Assembly (NCBI GenBank): GCA_963771355.1
Contig: CAVYTA010000007.1
Span: 608,001 to 672,000, forward strand
From: an uncultured Candidatus Rokubacteria bacterium
Lineage (GTDB): Bacteria > Methylomirabilota > Methylomirabilia > Rokubacteriales > CSP1-6
Length of the DNA stretch: 64,000 nucleotides
Direction: 5' to 3'
Notes under the pieces: generated by a model
Told to the model about the DNA's origin: nothing
What the model saw: only the letters and a program-made list of their open reading frames with translations
Database searches by the model: none
Shown: positions 1 to 22,432 of the stretch, one piece after another
How positions within the stretch are numbered: position 1 is the stretch's first letter
How the letters are laid out: every line of letters begins with the position of its first letter
Program-made: the position numbers and the translations under genes

Positions 1-3000
1 CGGTCTGGTCATGCGGACGCCCGCCGGGAGCCTGCTCGACCAGACGAGCCGCCTGGTGGTGCAGCGGCAGAAGGCGTATGCCCTGGCCCACGCGGTCCCG
101 TGGGGCATCTCGGAGTCCGCCTACAACGTGCGGGACCTCGACCTGACCTATCAGTACTCGAGCTTCGGCGTGCCCGGCCTCGGCCTCGAGCGGGGGCTCG
201 GCGAGGATCTCGTCATCGCGCCCTACGCGACGGCCTTGGCGGCGATGGTCGACCCGCCCGCCGCCGCGCGGAACTTCACCGAGCTGGCGCGCGTGGGGGG
301 GCTGGGGGCGTATGGGTTCTACGAGGCGCTGGACTACACGCGCTCGCGCGTGCCCGAGGGCACCCGCGTGGCGGTGATCCGCGCCTACATGGCCCATCAC
401 CAGGGCATGACGGTGGTCGCGCTCGCCAACGTCCTCCTGGACGGGCGCATGCGTGAGCGCTTCCACGCCGAGCCCATCGTCCAGGCCACCGAGCTTCTGC
501 TCCAGGAGCGTCCGCCCCACGACGTCCCCGTCATGCGGCCCCGCAGCGAGGAGGTGAGCGCGCCGGGCCACCTCCGCGAGTCGGTGGCGCCCGTCGCGCG
601 CCGCTTCACCTCGGCCTCCGATCCGCTGCCCCGCACCCATCTCCTGTCCAATGGGCGATACGTGGTGATGCTGACCGCCGCGGGCGGGGGCTATAGTCAC
701 TGCGGCCCGCTCGCCGTCACGCGCTGGCGGGAAGACGTGACTCGCGACGCCTGGGGCAGCTTCGTGTTTCTTCGTGACGTCCTCACCGGGCAGGTCTGGT
801 CGACGGGCTATCAGCCGAGCGGCGTGGAGCCCCAGGCCTACGCGGCGACCTTCCTCGAGGACCGCGCGGAGATCCAGCGGCGGGACGGCAATCTCTTCAC
901 GACCCTCGAGGTGCTGGTGTCGCCCGAGGACGACGCCGAGATCCGCCGGGTGTCGCTCACCAATGTCGGGAAGCGACGTCCGGGAGATCGAGCTGACGTC
1001 CTACGCCGAGCTGGTGCTGGCGCCCCCGCGGGCGGACCTGGCGCATCCCGCCTTCTCCAACCTGTTCGTGCACACCGAGGCCGTCGCCGAGCTGGACACG
1101 CTCCTGGCCACGCGCCTGAGCCGCGTCCCCGAGGAGCCGCGCGTCTGGGCCGCCCACGTGGTGACGGTGGAGGGCGCGACCGCGGGAGGCTCCCAGCACG
1201 AGACGGACCGCGCCCGCTTCCTCGGCCGGGGGCGCGGCATCCGGACGCCGATGTCGATGATCGAGGGCCGGCCGCTCTCGAACACCACCGGCGCGGTGCT
1301 CGACCCCATCTTCAGCCTCCGCCGGCGCGTGCGGCTGGCGCCGGGCGCGAGCGCGCGCATCGTGTTCACGACCCTGCTCGCCCCCTCGCGGGCGGCGGCG
1401 CTGGCCCTGGCCGACAAGTACCGCGACCCCGCGACGTTCGAGCGCACGGCCACGCTGGCGTGGACGCAGGCGCAGGTCCAGCTCCATCACCTCGGCATCG
1501 CGCCCGACGAGGCCCACCTCTTCCAGCACGTGGCCAATCGCATCCTGTACTCCGATCCGCGTCTGCGGGCCCCGGCGCGCACGCTGGCACGGAACTCGGT
1601 CGGTCCCTCCGCGCTCTGGGCGCATCGGATCTCCGGCGACCTGCCCATCGTCCTGGTCCGGATCGACGAGGTGGAGGACCGCGGCATCGTGCGGCAGATC
1701 CTGCGCGCCCACGAATACTGGCGCATGAAGGGGCTGGCGGTGGATCTCGTCATCCTCAACGAGAAGCCGCCGTCGTATCTCCAGGATCTCCAGGGCACGC
1801 TCGAGGGCCTGGTGCGGGCAGGGAGGCCCACGCTCACCGCGACCCCCGAGGGCGGCGTGTACGTCCTCCGGACCGACCTCCTCTCCCCGGTGGAGCGTGA
1901 CTGCCTCCAGGCGGCGGCCCGCGTGGTGCTGCTGAGCCGCCAGGGCACCCTCGCCGAGCAGGTCGCGCGCGCCGACCATGTCCCGCCCGCCGAGCGCGTG
2001 ACGTCCGCGCGGCGTCGCGAGGCGCTGCCGGACGCCCGGCGCGACCCTGCTCCCGAGACGATCGTCCCGCGGCCCGATCTGGAGTTCGGCAACGCGCTGG
2101 GCGGCTTCGTGGAGGACGGGCGCGAGTACATGACCGTGCTCGGCGAGGGGCAGTGGACGCCGGCCCCGTGGATCAACGTGGTGGCCAACGCGCGTCTCGG
2201 CTTCCAGGTGTCGGAATCCGGCGCGGGGTATGTCTGGGCGGAGAACAGCCGGGAGAACCAGATCACCCCCTGGTCGAACGATCCCGTGTCCGACCCGCCG
2301 GGCGAGATCCTCTACGTGCGGGACGAGGAGTCGGGCCAGCTCTGGGGTCCGACGCTCCTGCCCATCCGCGAGGACGCCTGGCCCTATGTGTGCCATCACG
2401 GGCAGGGCTATAGTCGCTTCGCGCACACCTCGCATGGGATCGCGCTCGAGCTCACCCAGTTCGTCCCGCTCGACGACCCGGTGAAGATCTCGCGCCTCCG
2501 CATCGAGAACCGCTCCAAGCGCGCGCGCCGGCTGAGCGTCACCGCCTACGTGGAGTGGGTGCTCGGCGCCTCGCGGGGGATGACGGCGCCCCACATCGTG
2601 ACCGAGGTGGACGAGCGCACCGGAGCGCTCCTGGCGCGCAATGCCTGGACGCAGGACTTCCCCGGGCGCGTCGCGTTCCTCGACCTGCGGGGAGCCCAGA
2701 CGTCATGGACGGGCGACCGCGCCGAGGTGCTCGGGCGCAACGGGACGCTCGACCATCCGGAGGCGCTCGAGCGCGGCGCGCGCCTGTCCGGCACGGTGGG
2801 AGCGGGCCTCGATCCCTGCGGCGCGCTCCAGGTGTCGCTGCTCATCCCGCCGGGCGGCGAGGCCGAGCTGGCGGTGCTGCTCGGCCAGGGGACGTCGGCG
2901 GACGAGGCGCGCGCGCTGGTGGAGCGCTACCGCGCTGCGGATCTCGACGCGGTGCTCGATGCGGTGATCGTGCGCTGGGACGACCTGGTCGCCGCGGTGC

Positions 3001-4487
3001 AGGTGAAGACCCCGGACCGGTCGCTCGACCTCATGCTCAATCGCTGGCTCCTCTACCAGACGCTCTCCTGCCGCATCCTCGGACGCTCGGGCTTCTACCA
3101 GGCGGGCGGGGCCTATGGGTTCCGCGACCAGCTCCAGGACGTGATGGCGCTGGCGGTGGCCGCGCCCGACGTCACCCGGGCCCAGATCTGCCGGGCCGCC
3201 GCCCACCAGTTCGTCGAGGGCGACGTGCAGCATTGGTGGCATCCCCCGTCCGGCCGCGGGGTGCGCACGCGCATCTCCGACGACCTGCTCTGGCTGCCCT
3301 ATACGGCGGCGCACTACATGGCGGTGACCGGGGACCGCGGGCTCCTCGACGAGGACATCTCCTTTCTCGAGGGCCCTCCGCTGCCTCCGGGCGAAGCGGA
3401 GGCCTACTTCGAGCCCACCGTCTCGCGGCAGCGCGCCTCGTTGTTCGAGCACTGCGCCCGGGCGCTGGACCAGCGCCTCGCGGTGGGGGCGCACGGGCTG
3501 CCGCTGATGGGGTCGGGCGACTGGAACGACGGTATGAACCGGGTCGGCCATCAGGGGCGCGGGGAAAGCGTCTGGCTCGGCTGGTTCCTCCACGCCACCC
3601 TCACCGAATGGGCGCCCATCGCGGATGCGCGCGGCGAGCGTGCGCGCGGCGAGGCGTGGCGCGCGCACGCCGCCGCGCTGCGCTCCGCGCTCGAGACTGC
3701 GGGCTGGGACGGGGACTGGTACCGTCGCGCGTACTTCGACGACGGCACGCCGCTAGGCTCGGCCGAGAACGCCGAATGCCGGATCGACTCCATCGCCCAG
3801 TCCTGGGCCGTGCTCTCGGGCGCCGCCGATCCGCGGCGCGCCGCCCGGGCCATGGCCGCGGTGGAGGAGTATCTCGTGCGGCGCGAGCAGGCGCTCGTCC
3901 TCCTCTTCACGCCGCCGTTTTCCCGGACCGCGCGCGATCCCGGCTACATCAAGGGCTACCCCCCCGGCGTCCGCGAGAACGGCGGTCAGTACACGCATGC
4001 CGCGATCTGGGCCATCATGGCCTGGGCCACGCTCGGGGACGGTGACCGCGCCGGCGAGCTCCTCTCCATCCTCAATCCCATCAACCACACCGCCACGCGC
4101 GCCGGCGTCTACCGCTATCGAGGCGAGCCGTACGTGGTGGCGGCCGACGTCTATGCGGAGCCGCCCCATGCGGGGCGGGGGGGCTGGACCTGGTACACGG
4201 GCTCGGCGGGCTGGATGTACCGCGCGGGCATCGAGTGGCTGCTGGGCTTCCGGCTACGCGGGGCGGCGCTCTTCATCGACCCCTGTATCCCGCGTGCGTG
4301 GAGCGGATTCACGCTGACGTTTCGCTACCACTCCGCGAACTACGTCATCCAGGTGGAGAACCCACACGGCGTCACCCGCGGCGTCGCGCGGGTGGAGCTC
4401 GACGGCCTTCCCATCACCCCGGGGCCCGAAGGACTCGGCCTGGTCAGCGACGGGCGCACCCACCGGGTCCGCGTCCTGCTGGGCTAG
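1..4487 (+). CDS. ndvB: Cyclic beta-1,2-glucan synthase/phosphorylase (NdvB/Cgs-like, GH94 C-terminal region); 5'-truncated by window edge, +1 frameshift near 971
   Basis: ORF 11.. (PWGISES, YQYSSFGVPGLGL, YMAHHQGM) joins ORF 774..4487 (TPAPWINV, GAYGFRDQLQD, GDWNDGMN, ENGGQYTH, GGWTWYTGSAGW). Removing one A at 971-972 restores NVG-SDVREIELTSY. Confidence 0.9.
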
Positions 4488-8152: not shown

Positions 8153-8551
8153 TCAACGAGTGGAGGCATCCACGATCCGGGTGAGGGCCGAGACGCTCCG
8201 ATCGAGCACGTCGGCGGCCTGATGGACCGTGGCGGGGTTCTCGGCATGCTCGCGGAGCACGCCGATCCACCCGGCGATGGCGTTGAGCGGCGTGCGGAGG
8301 GCGTGCGCGAGGAGCTCGCGATCGTCTTCCGCCGAGCGAATCAGGATGTCGAGATCGGCCTGGAGCGCACGGAGGCGGTGGGCGATCGGGTCCGTCTCGT
8401 GACCGCCCGGTGCCCTGTCTTCGAACTCGGCGGCCAGGTGCTGCAGCCCGGACCGGACATCATCAAGGATGGCCTGCCGAGCCGAACGCGGCCCATCGGC
8501 CGCGCTGGGAACGGGCTCGGCTTCTCGAGGAATCACGTGAGGGCGTGCCAT
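8153..8551 (-). CDS. Stand-alone HisKA (DHp) domain protein, no HATPase domain
   Basis: LAHALRTPLNAIAGW H-box followed by a second helix (QAADVLDRSVSALTRIVD); ends 55 bp from a convergent gene; has its own sigma54 promoter motif. Confidence 0.72.
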   Translation of the reverse strand: MARPHVIPREAEPVPSAADGPRSARQAILDDVRSGLQHLAAEFEDRAPGGHETDPIAHRLRALQADLDILIRSAEDDRELLAHALRTPLNAIAGWIGVLREHAENPATVHQAADVLDRSVSALTRIVDASTR

Positions 8552-8566: not shown

Positions 8567-8582
8567 TGCAACTGACGTGCCC
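8567..8582 (-). promoter_or_regulatory. sigma54 -24/-12 promoter for the DHp-only gene
   Basis: Minus strand GGGCACGTCAGTTGCA. Confidence 0.75.
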
Positions 8583-8609
8583 GCCTCGTTCTGAATTATT
8601 AGTAAGAAC

Positions 8610-8622
8610 AGTCAAGCAGTTA
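8610..8622. promoter_or_regulatory. Putative IHF site
   Basis: AGTCAAGCAGTTA, one mismatch to WATCAANNNNTTR, next to an AT-rich tract (8591-8609) and just upstream of the sigma54 promoter. Confidence 0.5.
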
Positions 8623-8725
8623 CGTGAAGGGGCCAGGGAAGAAATCACCCGGCACCCCTATTTGGGGTGTGTAAGAACTTCCCCGGAGCCTTGCGCTAAG
8701 CCACGGGGTTCGGCAAAATTGGGTC

Positions 8726-10081
8726 ATGACCCGTGTGCTCGTCGCAGACGACGACCAAGACTCATGTCAGGCGCTGTCGGCCCTTCTCTCCGGATGGGGC
8801 TACGAGGTGGCAGAGGCGGCGGATGGGAACGAAGCGCTGGACCGGGCCATTGTGTTCCGCCCGTCGCTGATCGTCACCGACCTCGTGATGCCCGGGATGG
8901 ACGGGCTCGCCTTGCTCAAGGCCCTTCGCGTCGAACTACCCGCCTCCACCGTGATCGTCCTCACCGGCCATGCCACCATCGAGACCGCGGTGGCGGCCAT
9001 GCGGGATGGCGCCTACGACTACCTCCCCAAGCCGGTGGACCTTCGGCGGCTCCGCGCCCTGGTGGACAAAGCACTCGAGCAGTCCCAGGTGCTCCGCGAG
9101 GTGACGCTCCTCCGCCGCCAGCTCGGCGGCACCCAGGCCATGGGGACCCTGATCGGGGCGAGCGAGCCCATGCAGGAGATCTATAAGACCATCGAGCAGG
9201 CGGCCTCGACCTCCGCCCCGGTCCTGATCTCGGGAGAGAGCGGCACCGGCAAGGAGCTGGCTGCGCGCACCATTCACTCGCTTTCCGTCCGGGGCAAGGG
9301 GCCGTTCGTGGCCATCAACTGCGGGGCCGTCCCGGAGACCCTGCTCGAGAGCGAGCTCTTCGGCCACGAGCGGGGCGCCTTCACCGGTGCGGTGGAGCGG
9401 CGCGCGGGCTATTTCGAGCTCGCGGACGGGGGCACGCTGTTCCTGGACGAGATCGCCGAGATGAGCGGGGCGCTGCAGGCCAAGTACCTGCGCGTGCTCC
9501 AGGACGGCGTGGTGCGCCGCCTCGGCGGGCGGGCGGAGCTGAAAGTCGACGTGCGCATCATCGCCGCCACGAACCGGGACCCGCGGGAGTCCATCAAGCA
9601 GGGGGCGTTCCGGGAGGATCTCTACTACCGGCTCAACGTGTTCAGCTTCACGATGCCGCCCCTCCGCGTGCGCAAGGGGGACATCCCGCTCCTCGCCGAG
9701 GCCTTCGTGACGGAGTTCGTCGGCAAGTACGACCGCGCGGCCAAGGGACTCAGCGCGGAGGCGCTGGATAGGCTGGGCCGGCACCGCTGGCCCGGCAACG
9801 TGCGCGAGCTGCGGAACTGCATCGAGCGCGCGGTGGTGGGCTGCACCAGTGCCGAGCTCACGGCCGACCTGCTGCCGCTTGATCTCCCGCTGCTCCCCGA
9901 GCCGGCCGGGGCGACGGCGCCTTCGCCTCCGCCCCTGAGCCTCGACGAAGCCGAGCGTCTCCACATCTTGCGCACGCTCGCGGCACTGGGGAGCAACAAG
10001 ACGCGGACAGCGGAGAGCCTGGGCATCAGCCTCAAGACCCTCCACAACAAGCTACGCCGGTATCGCGAATCGCCGGGCTGA
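8726..10081 (+). CDS. sigma54-dependent response regulator (NtrC/AtoC family: REC-AAA+-Fis HTH)
   Basis: VLVADDD..TDLVMPGMDG; GESGTGKE; ESELFGHERGAFTGA; LFLDEI; WPGNVREL; NKTRTAESLGISLKTLHNKL. Confidence 0.95.
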   Translation: MTRVLVADDDQDSCQALSALLSGWGYEVAEAADGNEALDRAIVFRPSLIVTDLVMPGMDGLALLKALRVELPASTVIVLTGHATIETAVAAMRDGAYDYLPKPVDLRRLRALVDKALEQSQVLREVTLLRRQLGGTQAMGTLIGASEPMQEIYKTIEQAASTSAPVLISGESGTGKELAARTIHSLSVRGKGPFVAINCGAVPETLLESELFGHERGAFTGAVERRAGYFELADGGTLFLDEIAEMSGALQAKYLRVLQDGVVRRLGGRAELKVDVRIIAATNRDPRESIKQGAFREDLYYRLNVFSFTMPPLRVRKGDIPLLAEAFVTEFVGKYDRAAKGLSAEALDRLGRHRWPGNVRELRNCIERAVVGCTSAELTADLLPLDLPLLPEPAGATAPSPPPLSLDEAERLHILRTLAALGSNKTRTAESLGISLKTLHNKLRRYRESPG

Positions 10082-12100: not shown

Positions 12101-12115
12101 GCAAGACTGGTGCCG
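12101..12115 (-). promoter_or_regulatory. sigma54 -24/-12 promoter for the PBP gene
   Basis: Minus strand CGGCACCAGTCTTGC, 13 nt before GTG start. Confidence 0.72.
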
Positions 12116-12199
12116 AGAGTCGCGTGACGCCAAGTATGGGAAAGATCAAGCCTCGGCATCGTAACCGGCGCAGTGGCCCTCACGAGAGAGTAAGAGATT

Positions 12200-12217
12200 C
12201 CCGGTAGCCCTTACCAG
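12200..12217. promoter_or_regulatory. Candidate enhancer (UAS) GGTA-N5-TACC
   Basis: CCCGGTAGCCCTTACCAG, 14/18 identical to the 16379/20385 element, between divergent sigma54 motifs. Confidence 0.55.
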
Positions 12218-12288: not shown

Positions 12289-12304
12289 GGGCGTGCCTCT
12301 TGCA
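12289..12304 (+). promoter_or_regulatory. sigma54 -24/-12 promoter-like motif
   Basis: GGGCGTGCCTCTTGCA (GG-N10-GC, perfect TTGCA). Confidence 0.55.
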
Positions 12305-15867: not shown

Positions 15868-16194
15868 CTACCCGCTCGTCTTCACGGAGAGATTGTTGAC
15901 CACCGCATTCACACCCTTCACGCTCCAGGCGATGTTCGAGGCGCGCTGCTTCATCTCCTGGCTGTCGACGAGCCCGTTGAGATAGACGGTCCGATGATTC
16001 GTGTCGACATCTACCTTGGTGAGGGTCGACACCTTCTCGGCGGCAAGCTTGGCCTTGACCTGGGTGGTGATGGTGGCGTCGTCGACGCTCTCCCCGGCGG
16101 TCTTGGCCACGCCGGAGGAGCAAGCGGCCAGGACCAGCATCGCCAGCAAAGCGACGGACAGCAGTCTCAGATCTCTCAGACGTAGCATGGCCAT
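15868..16194 (-). CDS. BON domain lipoprotein (OsmY-like)
   Basis: LAAC lipobox; DDATITTQVKAKL..VKGVNAVVNNL; SD AGGAG. Confidence 0.88.
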   Translation of the reverse strand: MAMLRLRDLRLLSVALLAMLVLAACSSGVAKTAGESVDDATITTQVKAKLAAEKVSTLTKVDVDTNHRTVYLNGLVDSQEMKQRASNIAWSVKGVNAVVNNLSVKTSG

Positions 16195-16257
16195 TTTCTC
16201 CTTTTCTTCGTCTCGTTCTTCTGGAGCGTGACTTGAGGCGCTATGGCCACTCTCCGG

Positions 16258-16272
16258 GCAAGTGATGTGCCA
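16258..16272 (-). promoter_or_regulatory. sigma54 -24/-12 promoter
   Basis: Minus strand TGGCACATCACTTGC (consensus). Confidence 0.85.
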
Positions 16273-16378
16273 GACCGGCCCGCGAGCGAGGGACCGGCGA
16301 AGCGAGCGGAATCGTTGCCGCCGCGCAGTCGGATGGAGGCGAACTTCGTTACATAGCAGCGGGGAAAAGCGTTCTTCG

Positions 16379-16396
16379 GCCGGTAGTCCTGACCCG
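16379..16396. promoter_or_regulatory. Candidate enhancer (UAS), copy 1
   Basis: GCCGGTAGTCCTGACCCG, identical to 20385-20402, about 105 bp from each of two divergent sigma54 promoters. Confidence 0.65.
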
Positions 16397-16498
16397 GCTT
16401 CCTTTGGCAGTGCGCTCCGCTGGACCAGCAACTGCACATCGCCCGCCTTATCCGGGCGCTCCGGGCGACACCCCAGACCAATAGGGAGGGCAACTCGC

Positions 16499-16513
16499 TG
16501 GCACTGTGATTGC
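16499..16513 (+). promoter_or_regulatory. sigma54 -24/-12 promoter
   Basis: TGGCACTGTGATTGC (consensus). Confidence 0.85.
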
Positions 16514-16561
16514 GTGCTCCGGAACCCGTGCGCACCGCTTAGAAAAAGGGAGATCAAGGTC

Positions 16562-16884
16562 ATGGACAGGAAGAAGAGGGAGTCGAAGCAGACAGACGAC
16601 GACCAGTCGCGCGAACCTGGCCGTCATCCCCAGGCGCCAGAGCCCGAGCACCGGCACCCGGATTCGAATCGTCCTGACACGCTCCGACCGGGCCCCGGTC
16701 AGCGAGAGTCGGCCGCTGAGCGAGAGTCGAAGCAAGGGGCGCGTCAGGGCGACGAGAGCCAGGTGGCGAGCGCGGAGCTGGACGACGAAGACGACGAGGA
16801 CGATAGACGACGAGAGACGACGATGACGATGACGACAGCGACGACGTGGACACCGACGACGAGGTAAGGGCGGCTCGGCCGTGA
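16562..16884 (+). CDS. Highly charged, acidic disordered protein (hydrophilin-like); apparent frameshift at about 16805-16815
   Basis: MDRKKRESKQTDDDQ..DDEDDEDD; the GAC/GAT run continues in another frame as DDDDDDDSDDVDTDDEVRAARP*. Confidence 0.6.
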
Positions 16885-16895
16885 GGAGGAAAGTC

Positions 16896-17261
16896 ATGAA
16901 GACCTGGCCGAGTCGAGCATTTCGCGCGATGGGACTGGGAGTCGTCCTTGGGGCGGCGGCGTTCATGGGGCTGGGACCCCTGGCGCCGCCGCCGGCCTGG
17001 GCCGAGCCGGAAGTGGCGATCATCGAAACCCGCGCTGCTCTCGAGGATGAGTCCAGCGACGGCGTCAATGCGGCACTCAGAAAGGCGCTGGAGAAGGCGA
17101 TCCGGGGTGCCGCCGCCATGGGGCTTGGCCAGGTGCGGATCAACAGCGCCTATCGGGGGCCGAGCTTCGTCGTGATCCAGATCCTCGCGACCACCGAGAC
17201 GGAGGGCGAGACGAGCGCGGGGCCCCGGGTCGGCGAGGCCACGCCGGGCAACCGGTTCTAG
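16896..17261 (+). CDS. Hypothetical secreted protein
   Basis: SD GAGGAGG; signal peptide ending AWA-E. Confidence 0.7.
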   Translation: MKTWPSRAFRAMGLGVVLGAAAFMGLGPLAPPPAWAEPEVAIIETRAALEDESSDGVNAALRKALEKAIRGAAAMGLGQVRINSAYRGPSFVVIQILATTETEGETSAGPRVGEATPGNRF

Positions 17262-17296
17262 CAAGTATCGCGAACGGTATCACCGGGGCTGAGGGA

Positions 17297-19168
17297 TCAG
17301 CGTGCCTCCTCCGGTACGGAGGACAGCTCGGGCCAGGAGGAGCGAGACTCCGCCGCGGCGGGGTCCTCCGGGCGGGCGGCGAGCCGCAGGGCCGCCGCAC
17401 GGGCCTTGATGAGCGACGTGACGAACGCGTCGGCTCCCGCGGCGCGGAGCGCGCGACGCCTCGCGGCAGTTCGCGCGACGCCGCACTGATAGACGAGGAT
17501 GGGTGTGTCCGGCGCCGCCTCGCGCAGCCGCTTCACGAGGTGGCGCAGGCGGCGGCCGCCGCCAGGACCGACGGCGCCGACGCAGACGAGGGCGGCGCCC
17601 GCTGCCTGGAGCGCGCCGACTGTCTCCACCGAAGGCGGACCCGGGGGAACGACGTGCACGAGGAAGCCGGCGGGGGTGAGCAGTCGTCCCAGCATGGCCA
17701 GCGCCGTCTCGTCCACCGCGTCACGAAGCGGCACCGCGGCCACCACCGTGGCGGCCGTCATCGAATCCGGCGCGCCCGCGGGCGCGGCCGGCGCATCGGC
17801 GGGCTCATACTCCACCAGCTTCCGGGTGACCTCCACGATACGCGCGTACTCCGCGCGCGAGAGCTGGCGCGCGAGCCGGTCGCGACGGGCGCGCGCGAGG
17901 GCGGGCAAGACCAGAGTGTCGAAGGCCGTCTCCAGGGAGGATGCCTTCACCGCCTCTGTCATCAGATCCGCCGCCTCGTTCTCGTCCCCGGCCAGCAGCC
18001 GCTGATAGAGGGTGACCGACGGCTTCACGCCTGAGTCGTCGCTCAGCAGGATCCCGATGAACTCGAGCCCGTCGACCGTCCGCGCGAAGACGACGAGGAG
18101 CACGGTCAAGGGCGTGGAGAGAACCAACCCAATTGGTCCCCACAGCCAGGTCCAGAAGGCGGCGCCGACCAGGAGCGCGAGCGCGGACACCCCGGCGCTC
18201 CAGCTGAAGAGCAGTGGCTCGAGCACGAAGGCCACGGTCACCTCGGTGACGATGAAGAGCCCCATGATGAGCAGCGGCCTGGTCCAGCCGTCGAAGACGG
18301 CCAGGCTCAGCATGATGGGAAGGAGCGCGGCCACCCACGCGCCGACGTAGGGGATGAAGCGCAGCATGCCCGCGAAGAAGCCGAGGGCAAGCGCGAAGGG
18401 CACGCCGAGGAGGTAGAGGCCCACGCCGATAGCGAGGCCGAAGCTTCCGTTGATGAGGGATTGCATGAGGAGGTAGCGGCTGATCCGATTGCCCGCCTCG
18501 TCGAGGAGCCGCGTGGTCGTCGCCAGATGGTGATGGCCGAAGAGTCGCACCACGCGCGCCCGGAGCTCTCGCTGCTGGATGAGGACGAAGAAGAGGAGAA
18601 CGATGACCAGGGTCGCCGAGCCGAGCGCCTCGAGCAGGTTCGGGATCGACCACAGCGCAGGCGAGGAGACCACCACCGGCACCGGCTTCTCGGCGCCGGG
18701 ATCGGGGGGGGTGCTTTTCTCGATTTGCTTCATGACGTCCTTGGCGGTGGCTTCCATCTTCTCCAGCGTCCCGCCGCGCCGCGCCTGCTGGATGTCCGAG
18801 ATCTTGCGGGTGATGGTCACCCGGTACTTCGGCAGCTCATTGGCGAGCGTGGCGATCTGAGCGGTGAGGGCCCAGCCCAGCGCGGCCGCGACGAGGAGGG
18901 CGAACAGGCCGACGGTCACCGCCGCCGGCACCCGCGGTAGGCCCCAACGCCGCAGGAGGTTCACCAGCGGAGTGAGGAGAAAGGCGAGCAGCAGCGCCAG
19001 CGCGACGGGGATCGCGACCACGCGCGCCCAGTAGAGACAGGCCACCGTCAGGACCATCCCGGCCAGGACGACGAAGCGCCGGCTGACGGCGGGGGTGGAG
19101 CGCGGGTGCCGCGGTGGCCGTCCGGCGCGCGGGCGCGCCGGCCCCCCCGCGGCACCCGCCCGGCTCAC
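17297..19168 (-). CDS. AI-2E family transporter with C-terminal cytoplasmic extension
   Basis: IPVALALLLAFLLTP, ISRYLLMQSLIN, LRFIPYVG, WTWLWGPIGLVLSTPLT, YQRLLAGD. Confidence 0.88.
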   Translation of the reverse strand: MSRAGAAGGPARPRAGRPPRHPRSTPAVSRRFVVLAGMVLTVACLYWARVVAIPVALALLLAFLLTPLVNLLRRWGLPRVPAAVTVGLFALLVAAALGWALTAQIATLANELPKYRVTITRKISDIQQARRGGTLEKMEATAKDVMKQIEKSTPPDPGAEKPVPVVVSSPALWSIPNLLEALGSATLVIVLLFFVLIQQRELRARVVRLFGHHHLATTTRLLDEAGNRISRYLLMQSLINGSFGLAIGVGLYLLGVPFALALGFFAGMLRFIPYVGAWVAALLPIMLSLAVFDGWTRPLLIMGLFIVTEVTVAFVLEPLLFSWSAGVSALALLVGAAFWTWLWGPIGLVLSTPLTVLLVVFARTVDGLEFIGILLSDDSGVKPSVTLYQRLLAGDENEAADLMTEAVKASSLETAFDTLVLPALARARRDRLARQLSRAEYARIVEVTRKLVEYEPADAPAAPAGAPDSMTAATVVAAVPLRDAVDETALAMLGRLLTPAGFLVHVVPPGPPSVETVGALQAAGAALVCVGAVGPGGGRRLRHLVKRLREAAPDTPILVYQCGVARTAARRRALRAAGADAFVTSLIKARAAALRLAARPEDPAAAESRSSWPELSSVPEEAR

Positions 19169-19266
19169 GGCCAGTTACCGGGAAGAAAGTCGAGCAGGAA
19201 CGCGATGGCCGCCAGGACAAGGACGAGGAAGACGTGGACGCCGGGTGGCTGCCGAAGGGTCAGCAT
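19165..19266 (-). CDS. 33-aa single-TM small protein (not in ORF track)
   Basis: MLTLRQPPGVHVFLVLVLAAIAFLLDFLPGNWP; SD GAGGGA; TGA overlaps GTG start of the AI-2E gene (GTGA). Confidence 0.6.
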   Translation of the reverse strand: MLTLRQPPGVHVFLVLVLAAIAFLLDFLPGNWP

Positions 19267-19274
19267 GGTGTCCC

Positions 19275-19607
19275 TCACCCTTTCTTCTGGACGATGAGAT
19301 GGTTGACGACGCCGTTCACGTGAGTGACGCTCCAGGCGATCTCGGCCGCGCGCTGGCGCGTCTCCTCGCTGTCCACCACGCCGGTCAAGTACACGGTGCG
19401 CAGGTTGGTCTCCACCCCCACGCGGGTGAGGGTGGCGAGCTTCTCGGCGGCGAGCCGGCTCTTCACCGCCGCGGTGATCTGCGCGTCATCCGCGTTCTCG
19501 CCGGCAGTCTGGCCGGTCAGGGACGAGCAGGCCGCCAGCAGGGTCACCAGCGCCAGCAGGGTGAGCGTCGCGAACGGGGACCGAGATCGCCGGGACCGCG
19601 GGCGCAT
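19275..19607 (-). CDS. BON domain lipoprotein (paralog of 15868-16194)
   Basis: LAAC lipobox; DDAQITAAVKSRLAAEK..VNGVVNHL. Confidence 0.88.
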   Translation of the reverse strand: MRPRSRRSRSPFATLTLLALVTLLAACSSLTGQTAGENADDAQITAAVKSRLAAEKLATLTRVGVETNLRTVYLTGVVDSEETRQRAAEIAWSVTHVNGVVNHLIVQKKG

Positions 19608-19609
19608 CG

Positions 19610-20200
19610 TTATTTCCTCGGTTCCCCGAGCTGCTCGAGGAGGGTCTTGAGCTCGTCGGCGTGCTCCTCCTCGTTGCCGAGCACACCCTCGAGCATGCGC
19701 CGGGTGGTCGGATCGCCCTCGCCCACGAACCGGATCATCTCCAGGTACGACTCGATGGCAATGCGCTCTGCCACCAGGTTCTCTCGAATCATGTCCACGA
19801 GGTCTCCGCCCTCCACGTACTCGCTGTGGCTGCGCGTGGCCAGGCCCTCGGGGGAGAAGTCGGGCTCCCCGCCGAGCTGCACGATGCGCTTGGCGATCTT
19901 GTCCGCGTGGCCCTGCTCCTCGGTGGCGTGCTTCATGAATTCCTCGGCGACCGCCTGGGCGTGGATTCCCGCCGCCATGAAGTGATGCCGGCGGTAGCGG
20001 AGCACGCAGATGAGCTCGGTGGCGAGCGCGGTATTGAGGAGGCGGATGACCGCCTCACGATCCACCTGGTGGCTCTCGGTCACGGCGCCGTCATCCATGT
20101 GCTCGCGGGCCCGCCGACGCAGCTCCTTCACGTCGGACAGGAAGTCCCCGCCGCCTCCCTCCTGCCCCTTCCCCTTGTCGCGCATGTCCCCAGTTTTCAC
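19610..20200 (-). CDS. Ferritin-like / bacterioferritin-family protein
   Basis: ALATELICVLRY, EEQGHAD, ENLVAERIAI, EEEHAD; SD AAGGAG before GTG. Confidence 0.88.
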   Translation of the reverse strand: MKTGDMRDKGKGQEGGGGDFLSDVKELRRRAREHMDDGAVTESHQVDREAVIRLLNTALATELICVLRYRRHHFMAAGIHAQAVAEEFMKHATEEQGHADKIAKRIVQLGGEPDFSPEGLATRSHSEYVEGGDLVDMIRENLVAERIAIESYLEMIRFVGEGDPTTRRMLEGVLGNEEEHADELKTLLEQLGEPRK

Positions 20201-20260
20201 GTCGCGCTCCTTTTGGGTGTTCGAGCTCCGGCCGTTCGCGTCCAGACAGACGATCGAACG

Positions 20261-20275
20261 GCAAACCCCGTGCCA
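20261..20275 (-). promoter_or_regulatory. sigma54 -24/-12 promoter
   Basis: Minus strand TGGCACGGGGTTTGC (consensus). Confidence 0.85.
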
Positions 20276-20368
20276 GCGAGGGACGGGTGGGGGCGGTCGA
20301 ACTGAAGCCTGCGGAATCTCAGGAAGCCGGGACAGACGATCCCGCGGCGACGACGCCGGCGCCAAGCA

Positions 20369-20402
20369 TGTCAAACTTACCGAAGCCGGTAGTCCTGACC
20401 CG
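20369..20402. promoter_or_regulatory. Candidate enhancer (UAS), copy 2 plus tandem half-matching site
   Basis: TGTCAAACTTACC (20369-81) + GCCGGTAGTCCTGACCCG (20385-402). Confidence 0.65.
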
Positions 20403-20502
20403 ATGCCGCTCCGAGTGGGTGGTGGCGCATCCGGGGGGTCGCCTCCGCGAGAGCGTGTGAAAAATCAGCGCGGAGCCCGCGGAGTGGCAGGTGATGGCGG
20501 GC

Positions 20503-20517
20503 TGGCACGGAAGATGC
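20503..20517 (+). promoter_or_regulatory. sigma54 -24/-12 promoter for cls
   Basis: TGGCACGGAAGATGC. Confidence 0.75.
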
Positions 20518-20531
20518 CAGATAGTCCGTTC

Positions 20532-21792
20532 ATGAGACTTCGCCGGTCCATCATTGGTGCCACTCCGCTCTTCGTCGCAGTGTTTCTCCTCACCGCGTCC
20601 TGCGCGAAGGTGCAGCCGCACTTCACCGTGCCGAAGATGACGGTTTCCGATCCGTCCTTCATCCCGACCATGGAGGCGTATACGGCCTCCACGGTGAGCC
20701 GGGGAAACCGGGTGGACTTCCTGCTGAACGGCCAGAAGATCTTCCCCGCCCAGCTCGCCGCCATTCGCTCCGCGCAGCGCACCATCACCTATGCGCAGTA
20801 TTTCTACGAGGACGGGAAGCCGGCGGTCCTCCTGGTGGAGGCCATCAGCGAGCGCTGCCGAGCGGGAGTTCGCGGCCACGTGCTCCTGGACGCTTTCGGC
20901 AGCCTCAAGATGCCGCCCGAGCTCCGGCAGCAGCTGCAGGACGCGGGCTGCGAGGTCGCCACCTTCCGGCCGCTGCGGCCGTGGGCGCTGGACGAGGCCA
21001 ATAACCGGAATCACCGCCGCATCCTGGTGGTGGACGGCAAGGTGGGCTTCACCGGCGGATCGGGGGCCAGCTCCAAGTGGATGGGCAATGGGCGGCGCGA
21101 GGGTCACTGGCGGGAGACCGACGCGCGCATGGAGGGCCCGGCGGTGAATGATCTGCAGGGTGCCTTCGCGGAGAACTGGCTGGAGGCGACCGGCCACGTG
21201 CTGGGCGGCGACGGCTACTTCGCGCCCCAGCCCGCCCGCGGCACGGTACGGGCCCAGGTGGTGCGGAGCTCGCCCACCAACGGCAGCTTCGCGGTGTACA
21301 CCATGTATCTCCTCGCCATGTCGTCGGCCCGGCGAAACATCTACATGACCAATCCCTATTTCCTGCCCGACGAGCAGATGCGCAAGGCCCTGGTCGAGGC
21401 GAGGCGTCGAGGGGTGCGGGTGGTCCTGCTGCTGCCCGGCGCCATCGACAACAACATCGTCCGCCAGGCCAGCCGCGGCGGGATTCGGAGAGCTGCTGGA
21501 CGCGGGTATCGAGATCCACGAGTACCGCTCGGGACTGCTCCACGCGAAGACCATGGCGGTGGACGGCCTCTGGGCGACGGTCGGGAGCACCAATGTGGAC
21601 AACCGGTCCTTCGCGCTGAACGACGAGCTGAACCTTGCCCTCTACGACGCGGAGACGGCGGCGGGCCTCGAGAAGATCTTCATCGACGACCTGCAGCACT
21701 CGCGGCCGGTGGACCCGGCCGTCTGGCGGGCGCGCGGTCCGATGACCCGGATGCTCGAGCTGATCTCCATGCCCTTCAAGCCCCAGCTCTGA
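20532..21792 (+). CDS. cls: Cardiolipin synthase / PLD family; +1 frameshift at about 21481
   Basis: NHRRILVVDGKVGFTGG, WRETD, TNPYFLP; after removing one G: GFGELLDAGIEIHEY..LHAKTMAVDG..GSTNVDNRSF. Confidence 0.85.
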
Positions 21793-21805
21793 GGGCGGCG
21801 CGTCC

Positions 21806-22432
21806 ATGCTGAACTCGATCCGGCTGGCCGCCCTGACGCTGAGCGCGCTGACCCTGGGCCTGAGCTTTGCCCACGTGCTCGAGATGCCGGCGAAGCTCGC
21901 CTATGCCCCTGCTGTCTACGTGGCCCTGCAGAACTCGCTGTACGTGTCCTTCGGACCGCCGCGGGTCGGGGCCTTCGTGGAGCCGGGGGCCATTCTCGCC
22001 ACCGGGCTCCTCGCGTATCTGGTCCGCCGCCGCCGGCCCGCGTTCTGGCTGACGGTGGGGGCGGAGATCTGCCTGCTGCTGGCCTTTCCGGTGGTGTTCT
22101 TCCTCTTCACCGACCCGGCCAATGCCGTGTTCCAGGGGGCGGCTTCCGTGCCCCCGGACTTCGAGCGCTACCGCATCCAGTGGGAGTATTCCCACGCGGC
22201 GCGGTTCGTCCTCCAACTGGCCGCCTTCGTGCTCCTCGCGCGGTCGGTGCTGCACCGGCCGCGCGTGCCGCGAAGCGAGCTCTCGCCCTACACCATGAGC
22301 GCGATCCAGACGGAGGGCCCCCCGAGCTACTCGCCCTCGTCGCCGCTGTTTGGAGACGGGCCGCCGTCGATGACCATGGTGGCCCCGTTCATGAAGCCGG
22401 ACGCGTCGGAGGCGAGAAAGACGCAAGGGTAG
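21806..22432 (+). CDS. DUF1772-like membrane protein
   Basis: LSFAHVLEMPAKL..RIQWEYSHAARF; 3' end overlaps the convergent SDR gene. Confidence 0.7.
   Translation: MLNSIRLAALTLSALTLGLSFAHVLEMPAKLAYAPAVYVALQNSLYVSFGPPRVGAFVEPGAILATGLLAYLVRRRRPAFWLTVGAEICLLLAFPVVFFLFTDPANAVFQGAASVPPDFERYRIQWEYSHAARFVLQLAAFVLLARSVLHRPRVPRSELSPYTMSAIQTEGPPSYSPSSPLFGDGPPSMTMVAPFMKPDASEARKTQG

Follow-up and report, generated by a model that had tools for sequence, protein, structure and literature searches.

Sigma-54 RNA polymerase requires a bacterial enhancer-binding protein (bEBP), which oligomerises on enhancer sites that usually lie 80-150 bp upstream and contacts the polymerase through DNA looping (PMC4987338). 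That one activator can serve divergent sigma-54 promoters is already known: ZraR, an NtrC-type response regulator of Escherichia coli and Salmonella, controls the divergent sigma-54 promoters of zraP and zraSR (PMC4987338) and binds a single target in the spacer between the two units (PMC8249747); a bidirectional layout alone would not surprise specialists. The largest class of such activators, and the most widespread, is the AtoC-like one (PMC3162934). Here we examine two copies of an 18-bp element that lie between divergent sigma-54 promoter boxes in a 64,000-nucleotide stretch (hereafter, the window) of the genome of an uncultured Candidatus Rokubacteria bacterium (Methylomirabilota; assembly GCA_963771355.1, contig CAVYTA010000007.1, positions 608,001 to 672,000 of the forward strand). 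The palindrome pair that underlies this element is likely an enhancer from which an activator of the clade that includes the NtrC-type protein encoded at 8726-10081 switches on the genes on both sides.

An element between divergent sigma-54 promoter motifs

The 18-mer GCCGGTAGTCCTGACCCG is present at positions 16379-16396 and 20385-20402 of the window, in both cases between divergent -24/-12 boxes, and an initial sequence-only reading had described both copies and their coordinates accurately. The first spacer separates a block of BON (OsmY-like), M48 and LLM genes from a small open reading frame (ORF) for an acidic protein, and the second separates a ferritin-like/BON gene pair from a cardiolipin-synthase-like (cls) gene. 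There is no further match within 3 mismatches in the window (mean of 0.16 in shuffled sequences, with 1 of 100 reaching 2), and the whole 5.53-Mb genome contains these 2 exact copies only, none with 1-2 mismatches and 10 with 3. The longest stretch common to both spacers is 18 nucleotides; because the maximum over 300 shuffles was 11 (mean 8.1), an 18-mer shared by such spacers is far beyond chance. Three of the four boxes in these pairs match TGGCAC-N5-TTGC exactly, and the fourth has one mismatch. The gaps between the 18-mer and the boxes are 106 bp on the left and 102 bp on the right in the first pair, and 109 and 100 bp in the second, so that the initial figures of 107-110 and 101-103 bp were about right; all four gaps (100-109 bp) are within the range usual for a bEBP enhancer.

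The spacer facing cls could be aligned from all eight genomes of the genus (G000, the genome of the window, to G007) and contains five conserved blocks: from left to right, the left-hand box, a GAA..GGAA element, a weak and then a strong palindrome, and the right-hand box. In 8/8 genomes the strong site is kept together with both boxes, even as the spacer sequence diverges and its length changes; within the strong site, GGTA and TGACC are invariant, and the weak site lies 19-20 bp before it. Eighteen sites of relatives yield the consensus GGTMR-N3-YKACC. Judging from this alignment, the working unit is a 13-bp palindrome of that form in tandem with a weaker copy 14-20 bp away, which replaces the single 18-bp site originally proposed; the 18-mer is therefore the 13-bp core plus a few flanking bases that the two copies have in common. 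A dyad-symmetric site, usually in two or three copies, is typical of a bEBP enhancer, and the pair found here agrees with this; with its single cluster of sites between two divergent sigma-54 promoter motifs, the spacer also has the bidirectional layout of the ZraR type. Genome-wide, a second site accompanies 54 of 82 site-box pairs, a raw count without a control.

The element had also been described as centred between the promoters. This is nearly so in the genome of the window but is not conserved: the distances from the centre of the site to the left and right boxes of the cls pair are 120/110, 118/107, 121/110, 113/65, 131/89, 131/88, 136/75 and 139/77 bp in the eight genomes, and what is general is that the site remains in range of both boxes. 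A palindromic site that both boxes have within range allows a single pair of sites to act towards the left or the right, and the conservation of the arrangement suggests that it is used in both directions. We consider it rather unlikely that the enhancer is genuine but one-sided, acting most likely on the BON/ferritin side, with the opposite promoter activated by another protein or by activator from solution. Such an arrangement would agree with the left distance being steadier (113-139 bp) than the right one (54-112 bp), with the extra conserved GAA..GGAA element on the left arm only, and with the first pair, where both boxes and the site are kept in 2 of the 3 genomes having the region and the right-hand box is absent in G002. 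It would not account for a cls box that is invariant in 8/8 genomes in a spacer with no other conserved site, nor for the recurrence of the same layout at three separate divergent pairs in the window.

The third of these pairs separates the gene for a class A penicillin-binding protein (PBP) from a proline-rich ORF of 50 amino acids. The sequence-only reading had noted here, at 12200-12217, a 14/18 variant of the 18-mer with a perfect dyad, which we confirmed (the GGTA-N5-TACC core occupies 12203-12215). Six of the 7 genus loci read have kept a box similar to the weak right-hand one at 12289-12303, and in the seventh the counterpart is degenerate. Across relatives, the ORF behind this box spans 50-59 amino acids, with the C-terminal motif VVE.FSP.G.C conserved in 7/7 genus loci checked; the gene is single-copy in the genome, and its 50-residue product has no match in Pfam or in the Atlas. 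Because the right-hand box is kept in relatives and a conserved ORF follows it, we regard the third divergent pair as real.

Origin of the two copies

Five genomes (G001, G004, G005, G006 and G007) have, in the stretches mapped, one BON gene and one spacer facing cls, whereas in the other three (G000, G002 and G003) there are two spacers and a pair of BON paralogues with 60% identity; the two regions are therefore old duplicates. A recent duplication with uniform similarity was rejected, since the arms flanking the 18-mer are no longer alike: in global alignments, the z scores against shuffles are 1.1 and 0.7 in G000, consistent with the original claim that the flanking DNA differs, compared with 3.2 for the left arm in G002 and 3.6-6.8 between orthologous cls spacers. 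In G002 and in G003 the copies are not identical to one another, and both copies in G000 keep the form seen in 4 of the 5 single-copy genomes. The 18/18 identity is thus peculiar to this genome, and, given the apparent old duplication of a BON-promoter unit, the two copies do not count as independent evidence.

The same gene counts would also suit a neutral remnant of duplication without function, which nevertheless appears very improbable. The BON paralogues have diverged to 60% identity and the arms have become unlike, but the core is still kept; moreover, unrelated promoters and other genera have the motif as well, and its enrichment beyond the gene island to which these pairs belong speaks against a remnant. 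The better interpretation is that both copies in the window go back to a single ancestral BON/cls spacer, which underwent an old duplication and has been retained by selection.

The motif across the genome and in other genomes

The motif matrix was trained on relatives only (orthologues of the island sites), so that counts within the island are partly circular, whereas the non-island count is not. At a threshold of at least 12 bits, the genome contains 83 matches, 11 of which lie 40-200 bp upstream of one of 149 sigma-54-like boxes, with 0.35 expected and 0 in the downstream control. At a threshold of at least 10 bits, the motif precedes 8 of the 14 island boxes and 10 of the 135 non-island boxes (permuted means 0.2 and 1.8, respectively), and 0 of 300 permutations reach either count; at 12 bits or more, the non-island count is 5, reached by ~1% of permutations. 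The motif thus precedes ~18 of the 149 boxes, many of them before envelope and stress-type genes, and for this reason likely defines a regulon. Outside the window, the genes behind the sites encode DUF5670, DUF3309, BON, glycine-zipper, DUF748 and receiver-only proteins, and several belong to no family. The distances from site to box in 82 pairs, chosen within a search range of 30-200 bp, have a median of 93.5 bp (range 44-139), which fits the usual 80-150 bp.

Among 61 genomes, the strict motif-plus-box pattern gave 51 matches in 15 genomes, compared with 4 in 3 genomes for the permuted motif, and the relaxed core gave 184 matches compared with 56 in the control; these cross-genome counts ignore kinship and therefore overstate the enrichment. 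Upstream regions of cls outside the genus were read at 10 of 17 loci, and one (in G021) has a tandem pair.

A clade of candidate activators

The protein encoded at 8726-10081 is intact, with a receiver domain, an AAA+ domain bearing the GAFTGA, Walker A and Walker B motifs, and a Fis-type helix-turn-helix (HTH) domain. It reaches no named NCBIfam equivalog cut-off, scoring 438 of 714 bits for AtoC, 418 of 559 for NtrC and 397 of 760 for ZraR, and a homologue search with it returned generic names only. With one rpoN gene, alongside five HU/IHF-family genes, the genome provides sigma-54 together with this intact bEBP, whose pairing with the sites is one of co-occurrence only. Two paralogues are encoded elsewhere on the same contig: one (C7:589186), which belongs to the same island and precedes the window by ~19 kb, is 63% identical and has the helix TPKTLRSKL, and the other (C7:421058) is 60% identical and shares the helix SLKTLHNKL with the window protein. 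In a quick tree of 130 rows, drawn with midpoint rooting, all three belong to one 21-row Methylomirabilota clade (Shimodaira-Hasegawa approximate likelihood-ratio support 100); the homologues are named Rokubacteria or Methylomirabilota by their sources, and the named Methylomirabilota rows share this clade.

A profile of the HTH splits the 61 genomes cleanly into 29 with the clade (at least 82 bits) and 32 without it (at most 66 bits). The clade-positive genomes hold 50 of the 51 strict matches and 158 relaxed matches (35 in the control), of which 78 (25 in the control) remain when the genus itself is set aside; the other 32 genomes have 26 relaxed matches compared with 21 in the control. Furthermore, 31 of the 150 matches listed, but 0 of 56 in the control, are within 6 kb of a gene of this clade or its sister clade (34 further relaxed matches fall outside the list). 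Genomes G014 and G021 each encode one clade member, with the helix SLKTLHNKL, and carry strict sites, which makes this helix compatible with the motif. Co-occurrence supports the activator clade as a candidate partner of the motif but points to no single paralogue. Accordingly, the earlier proposal of a sigma-54 activator-type site within reach of both promoters is borne out by the conservation in 8/8 genomes, the enrichment before boxes and the tie to the clade, and its attribution to the 8726-10081 activator is supported at the level of the clade, the two paralogues being equally possible binders.

That one of these paralogues, and not the window protein, is the working activator is a variant of the same explanation and a serious possibility, if somewhat short of an even chance. 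All three proteins belong to one clade, the far paralogue C7:421058 has the same helix, and in G001 and G006 a strong palindrome is located directly upstream of the upstream paralogue; in addition, the only kinase-like gene found beside the 8726-10081 activator is an ORF with a lone HisKA domain, whereas the paralogues are near full kinases. Against this, the sites near the far paralogue are of the TGTA..TACA type and not GGTA..TGACC, a strong site in G006 lies 27 bp before the orthologue of the window protein, and this orthologue belongs to the same gene block as the targets in 7/7 relatives mapped. We put at about even the chance that the 8726-10081 activator acts here, alone or shared.

The far paralogue is accompanied by a Cache-HAMP kinase (G000:C7:421058-425700, L046), followed by sigma-54-like boxes with sites of the TGTA-N5-TACA type; the difference in the outer bases (TGTA..TACA or GGTA..ACC) may separate the preferences of the paralogues. 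A sister clade with the helix SLKTLYNKL (L189-L191; G024, G016 and G017) has GTA-N5-TAC sites beside its gene. At 8568-8682 and 8153-8551 (minus strand), the HisKA-only ORF diverges from the window activator; upstream it has two weak palindromes (6.7 bits) as well as a sigma-54-like box, and it is possibly a feedback component. In G002, the upstream paralogue (L004, G002:C16:60500-61840) is spread over three frames, through decay to a pseudogene or through assembly errors, and strong sites persist there.

We also weighed whether some unrelated regulator binds here, such as a repressor, another bEBP or a protein resembling NorR, or whether the element acts as RNA, and find this unlikely. The core does share the GT-(N7)-AC geometry of the NorR site (PMC2831303), and the plus strand at 20355-20415 folds better than shuffled sequences (z -2.7). 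However, none of the 24 matches in the genome scores above the NorR family cut-off, and a NorR regulon was rejected on this ground; the fold is expected from two adjacent palindromes, and the other copy is unfolded (z +1.4 and +1.8). The clustering of matches beside activator-clade genes likewise disfavours an unrelated regulator. A structured non-coding RNA or a mobile repeat was rejected given the 0 matches in Rfam, the one unstructured copy and the presence of 2 exact copies per genome.

Several results weigh against an enhancer served by this clade. The genome encodes 24 bEBP-type AAA+ domains, so that other binders are possible; the kinship of the compared genomes inflates the counts, as already stated; strict matches are lacking from 15 of the 29 genomes with the clade; and helical phasing is absent from the 82 pairs (Rayleigh p 0.25 at 10.5 bp). 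At 75 loci outside Methylomirabilota with a similar helix, mostly from Acidobacteriota, there is no enrichment (at 10 bits or more, 1 of 46 boxes has a match upstream compared with 4 downstream), and de novo counting of dyads at the same loci gave nothing clear; five whole genomes from which these loci come contain 0 strict matches, and 2 relaxed matches compared with 4 in the control. To these come the missing right-hand box in G002 and one RNA-library contig that starts at 16496, upstream of the predicted start. Placed from the box positions, the predicted starts of the two pairs lie near 16246, 16525, 20249 and 20529. RNA-library contigs are low-depth and unstranded, cannot show starts or strand, and are given no weight here as evidence. 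Pieces from two studies stop at 16194, 16175, 16103, 20237 and 20225 and resume at 20553 and 20589; two RNA runs and one run that is probably DNA give no cover over either enhancer, and a run of unrecorded kind covers 20242-20417.

Features and surroundings of the locus

Table 1. Positions in the window of the promoter boxes, predicted sites, target genes and candidate activator.
Feature	Position	Strand	Remarks
NtrC-type activator (receiver, AAA+ with GAFTGA, Fis-type HTH)	8726..10081	+	one of three paralogous candidate binders
Sigma-54 box before class A PBP gene	12101..12115	-	similar box in relatives read
Third tandem pair of predicted sites	12189..12215		weak site 12189-12201 and perfect GGTA-N5-TACC 12203-12215
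Weak sigma-54-like box before proline-rich small ORF	12289..12303	+	similar box in 6/7 genus loci read
Proline-rich ORF, 50 amino acids	12318..12470	+	right-hand target of third pair
BON-domain (OsmY-like) gene	15868..16188	-	left target of first pair
Sigma-54 -24/-12 box before BON (OsmY-like)-M48-LLM genes	16258..16272	-	perfect match; invariant compared with 8 homologous regions
Conserved GAA..GGAA element	16299..16313		27-41 bp upstream of leftward box; GAA invariant, GGAA in 8/9 rows
Weak degenerate second palindrome	16363..16375		19 bp before strong one; aligns with better-formed second sites of relatives
Strong palindrome GGTAG-N3-TGACC, predicted activator site	16382..16394		core of first 18-mer; 16.3 bits; kept in G002 and G003
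Sigma-54 box before acidic small ORF	16499..16513	+	perfect match; in G003, not in G002
Acidic low-complexity small ORF	16562..16867	+	right target of first pair; probably assembly frameshift
Second BON gene	19275..19607	-	60% identical to first; marker of old duplication
Ferritin-like gene	19610..20185	-	left target of second pair
Sigma-54 box before ferritin-like gene and second BON gene	20261..20275	-	8/8 genus genomes
Second copy of conserved GAA..GGAA element	20304..20318		same alignment as first copy
Second palindrome TGTCA-N3-TTACC	20369..20381		19 bp before strong one; 11.6 bits; position kept in relatives, 19-20 bp
Strong 13-bp palindrome, predicted activator site	20388..20400		core of second 18-mer; GGTA and TGACC invariant, 8/8 genus genomes
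Sigma-54 box before cardiolipin-synthase-like gene	20503..20517	+	8/8 genus genomes
Cardiolipin-synthase-like (phospholipase D family, PLD) gene	20532..21812	+	right target of second pair

The GAA..GGAA element, ~30-45 bp upstream of the leftward -24 box, is kept in nearly all of the 9 regions aligned; it may bind a second regulatory protein or, as a guess, a protein that bends DNA. Probable single-base assembly errors are located near 21476 (in cls), near 19607 (at the BON/ferritin junction) and at 16803-16813 (in the acidic ORF), where relatives and RNA-library contigs differ. At 11-4487, the window contains a large gene with GH94 and glucoamylase domains, apparently split over two frames, whose product we take to be cyclic glucan synthase-like.

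The island extends upstream of the window (G000:C7:586001-606000, L045) and there contains LigD pieces, genes for two hybrid kinases, DUF748, DUF3309 and a BON-BON-peptidoglycan-binding protein, and at least 7 further sigma-54-like boxes; one of the kinases has Cache and PAS domains. In a second cluster (G000:C6:122001-138000, L058), sigma-54 boxes precede genes for topoisomerase IB, DUF1344 and a long catalase, with one site only (8 bits).

A possible mechanism and its significance

Extrapolating from established sigma-54 biology, a sensor kinase would phosphorylate the receiver domain of the activator, and phosphorylated dimers on the strong and weak palindromes would nucleate the AAA+ ring, which, through DNA looping, would open the sigma-54 polymerase waiting ~65-140 bp away. 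Each site pair would in this way co-activate two operons. A full-text literature search found no description of the motif or of its regulon (figures and supplements lay outside the search, and a similar motif could be present in the motif figure or the additional files of PMC4641369), nor any described sigma-54 regulon in Rokubacteria or Methylomirabilota. The locus appears to represent a familiar type of enhancer that is conserved and whose motif and regulon seem not to have been described. What it contributes is a concrete, testable pairing of motif and activator and, for a soil phylum without cultured members, a first map of such a regulon, and its three natural divergent pairs within 9 kb are material on whether one enhancer serves two sigma-54 promoters equally.

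Comparison with known systems

ZraR is like the system proposed here in the use of one NtrC-type regulator at divergent sigma-54 promoters with one target in the spacer, and among solved structures the ZraR HTH matches that of the clade best (1ojl, E 1.1e-08). The window protein, however, falls well short of the ZraR cut-off, and in place of zraP the targets here are genes for BON, ferritin-like, cls-like and PBP proteins, at three divergent pairs in 9 kb. NorR recognises a GT-(N7)-AC core and uses multiple adjacent sites (PMC2831303, PMC4987338 Table 1), but the candidate activators here have a receiver and not a GAF domain, the sites number two and not three per spacer, and there are no nitric oxide reductase targets among the annotated genes. 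NmpR of Myxococcus xanthus, an NtrC-like regulator, is the closest analogue at the level of the regulon: it has paired N5-spaced dyads and a multi-operon sigma-54 regulon delineated by motif search and electrophoretic mobility shift assay (PMC11841059). The NmpR dyad is GCGCA-N5-TGCGC and its targets are oxygen-use genes, in contrast to GGTA-N5-TACC-like sites and envelope or stress-type genes here.

The hyc and hyp operons are divergent. FhlA is listed for both (PMC4987338). In Desulfovibrio, one bEBP (DVUA0100 or OrpR) is assigned to two divergent sigma-54 operons, and there is precedent for two activators sharing one motif (PMC4641369, PMC8359166); OrpR differs in having two separate sites that flank its own gene (PMC8359166). 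The motifs and targets of FhlA and of the Desulfovibrio activators are other than those found here.

The gene content also invites comparison with the general stress regulons of RpoS and SigB. Genes for OsmY-like BON proteins, ferritin-like proteins, cls-like enzymes and catalase are typical general-stress genes; those behind the sites include three BON genes, ferritin-like, cls-like, DUF3309 and DUF5670 genes, together with several targets without a family, and the long catalase elsewhere adds a weaker likeness. From this content we suspect a role in stress. The difference is that such genes sit behind sigma-54 boxes here, and no sigma factor of the genome scores above the RpoS or SigB/F/G cut-offs (one unassigned, RpoS-like scorer reaches 309 compared with 379 for RpoS). 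Tentatively, this Rokubacteria lineage might run a general stress response without RpoS or SigB, in which three paralogous activators, answering to different sensor kinases, would share one palindrome and, by way of back-to-back promoter pairs, each site would fire two protective operons simultaneously. If that stress role is true, the case grows stronger that some soil lineages base their survival under stress on sigma-54 with an energy-dependent activator, and not on a dedicated stress sigma factor.

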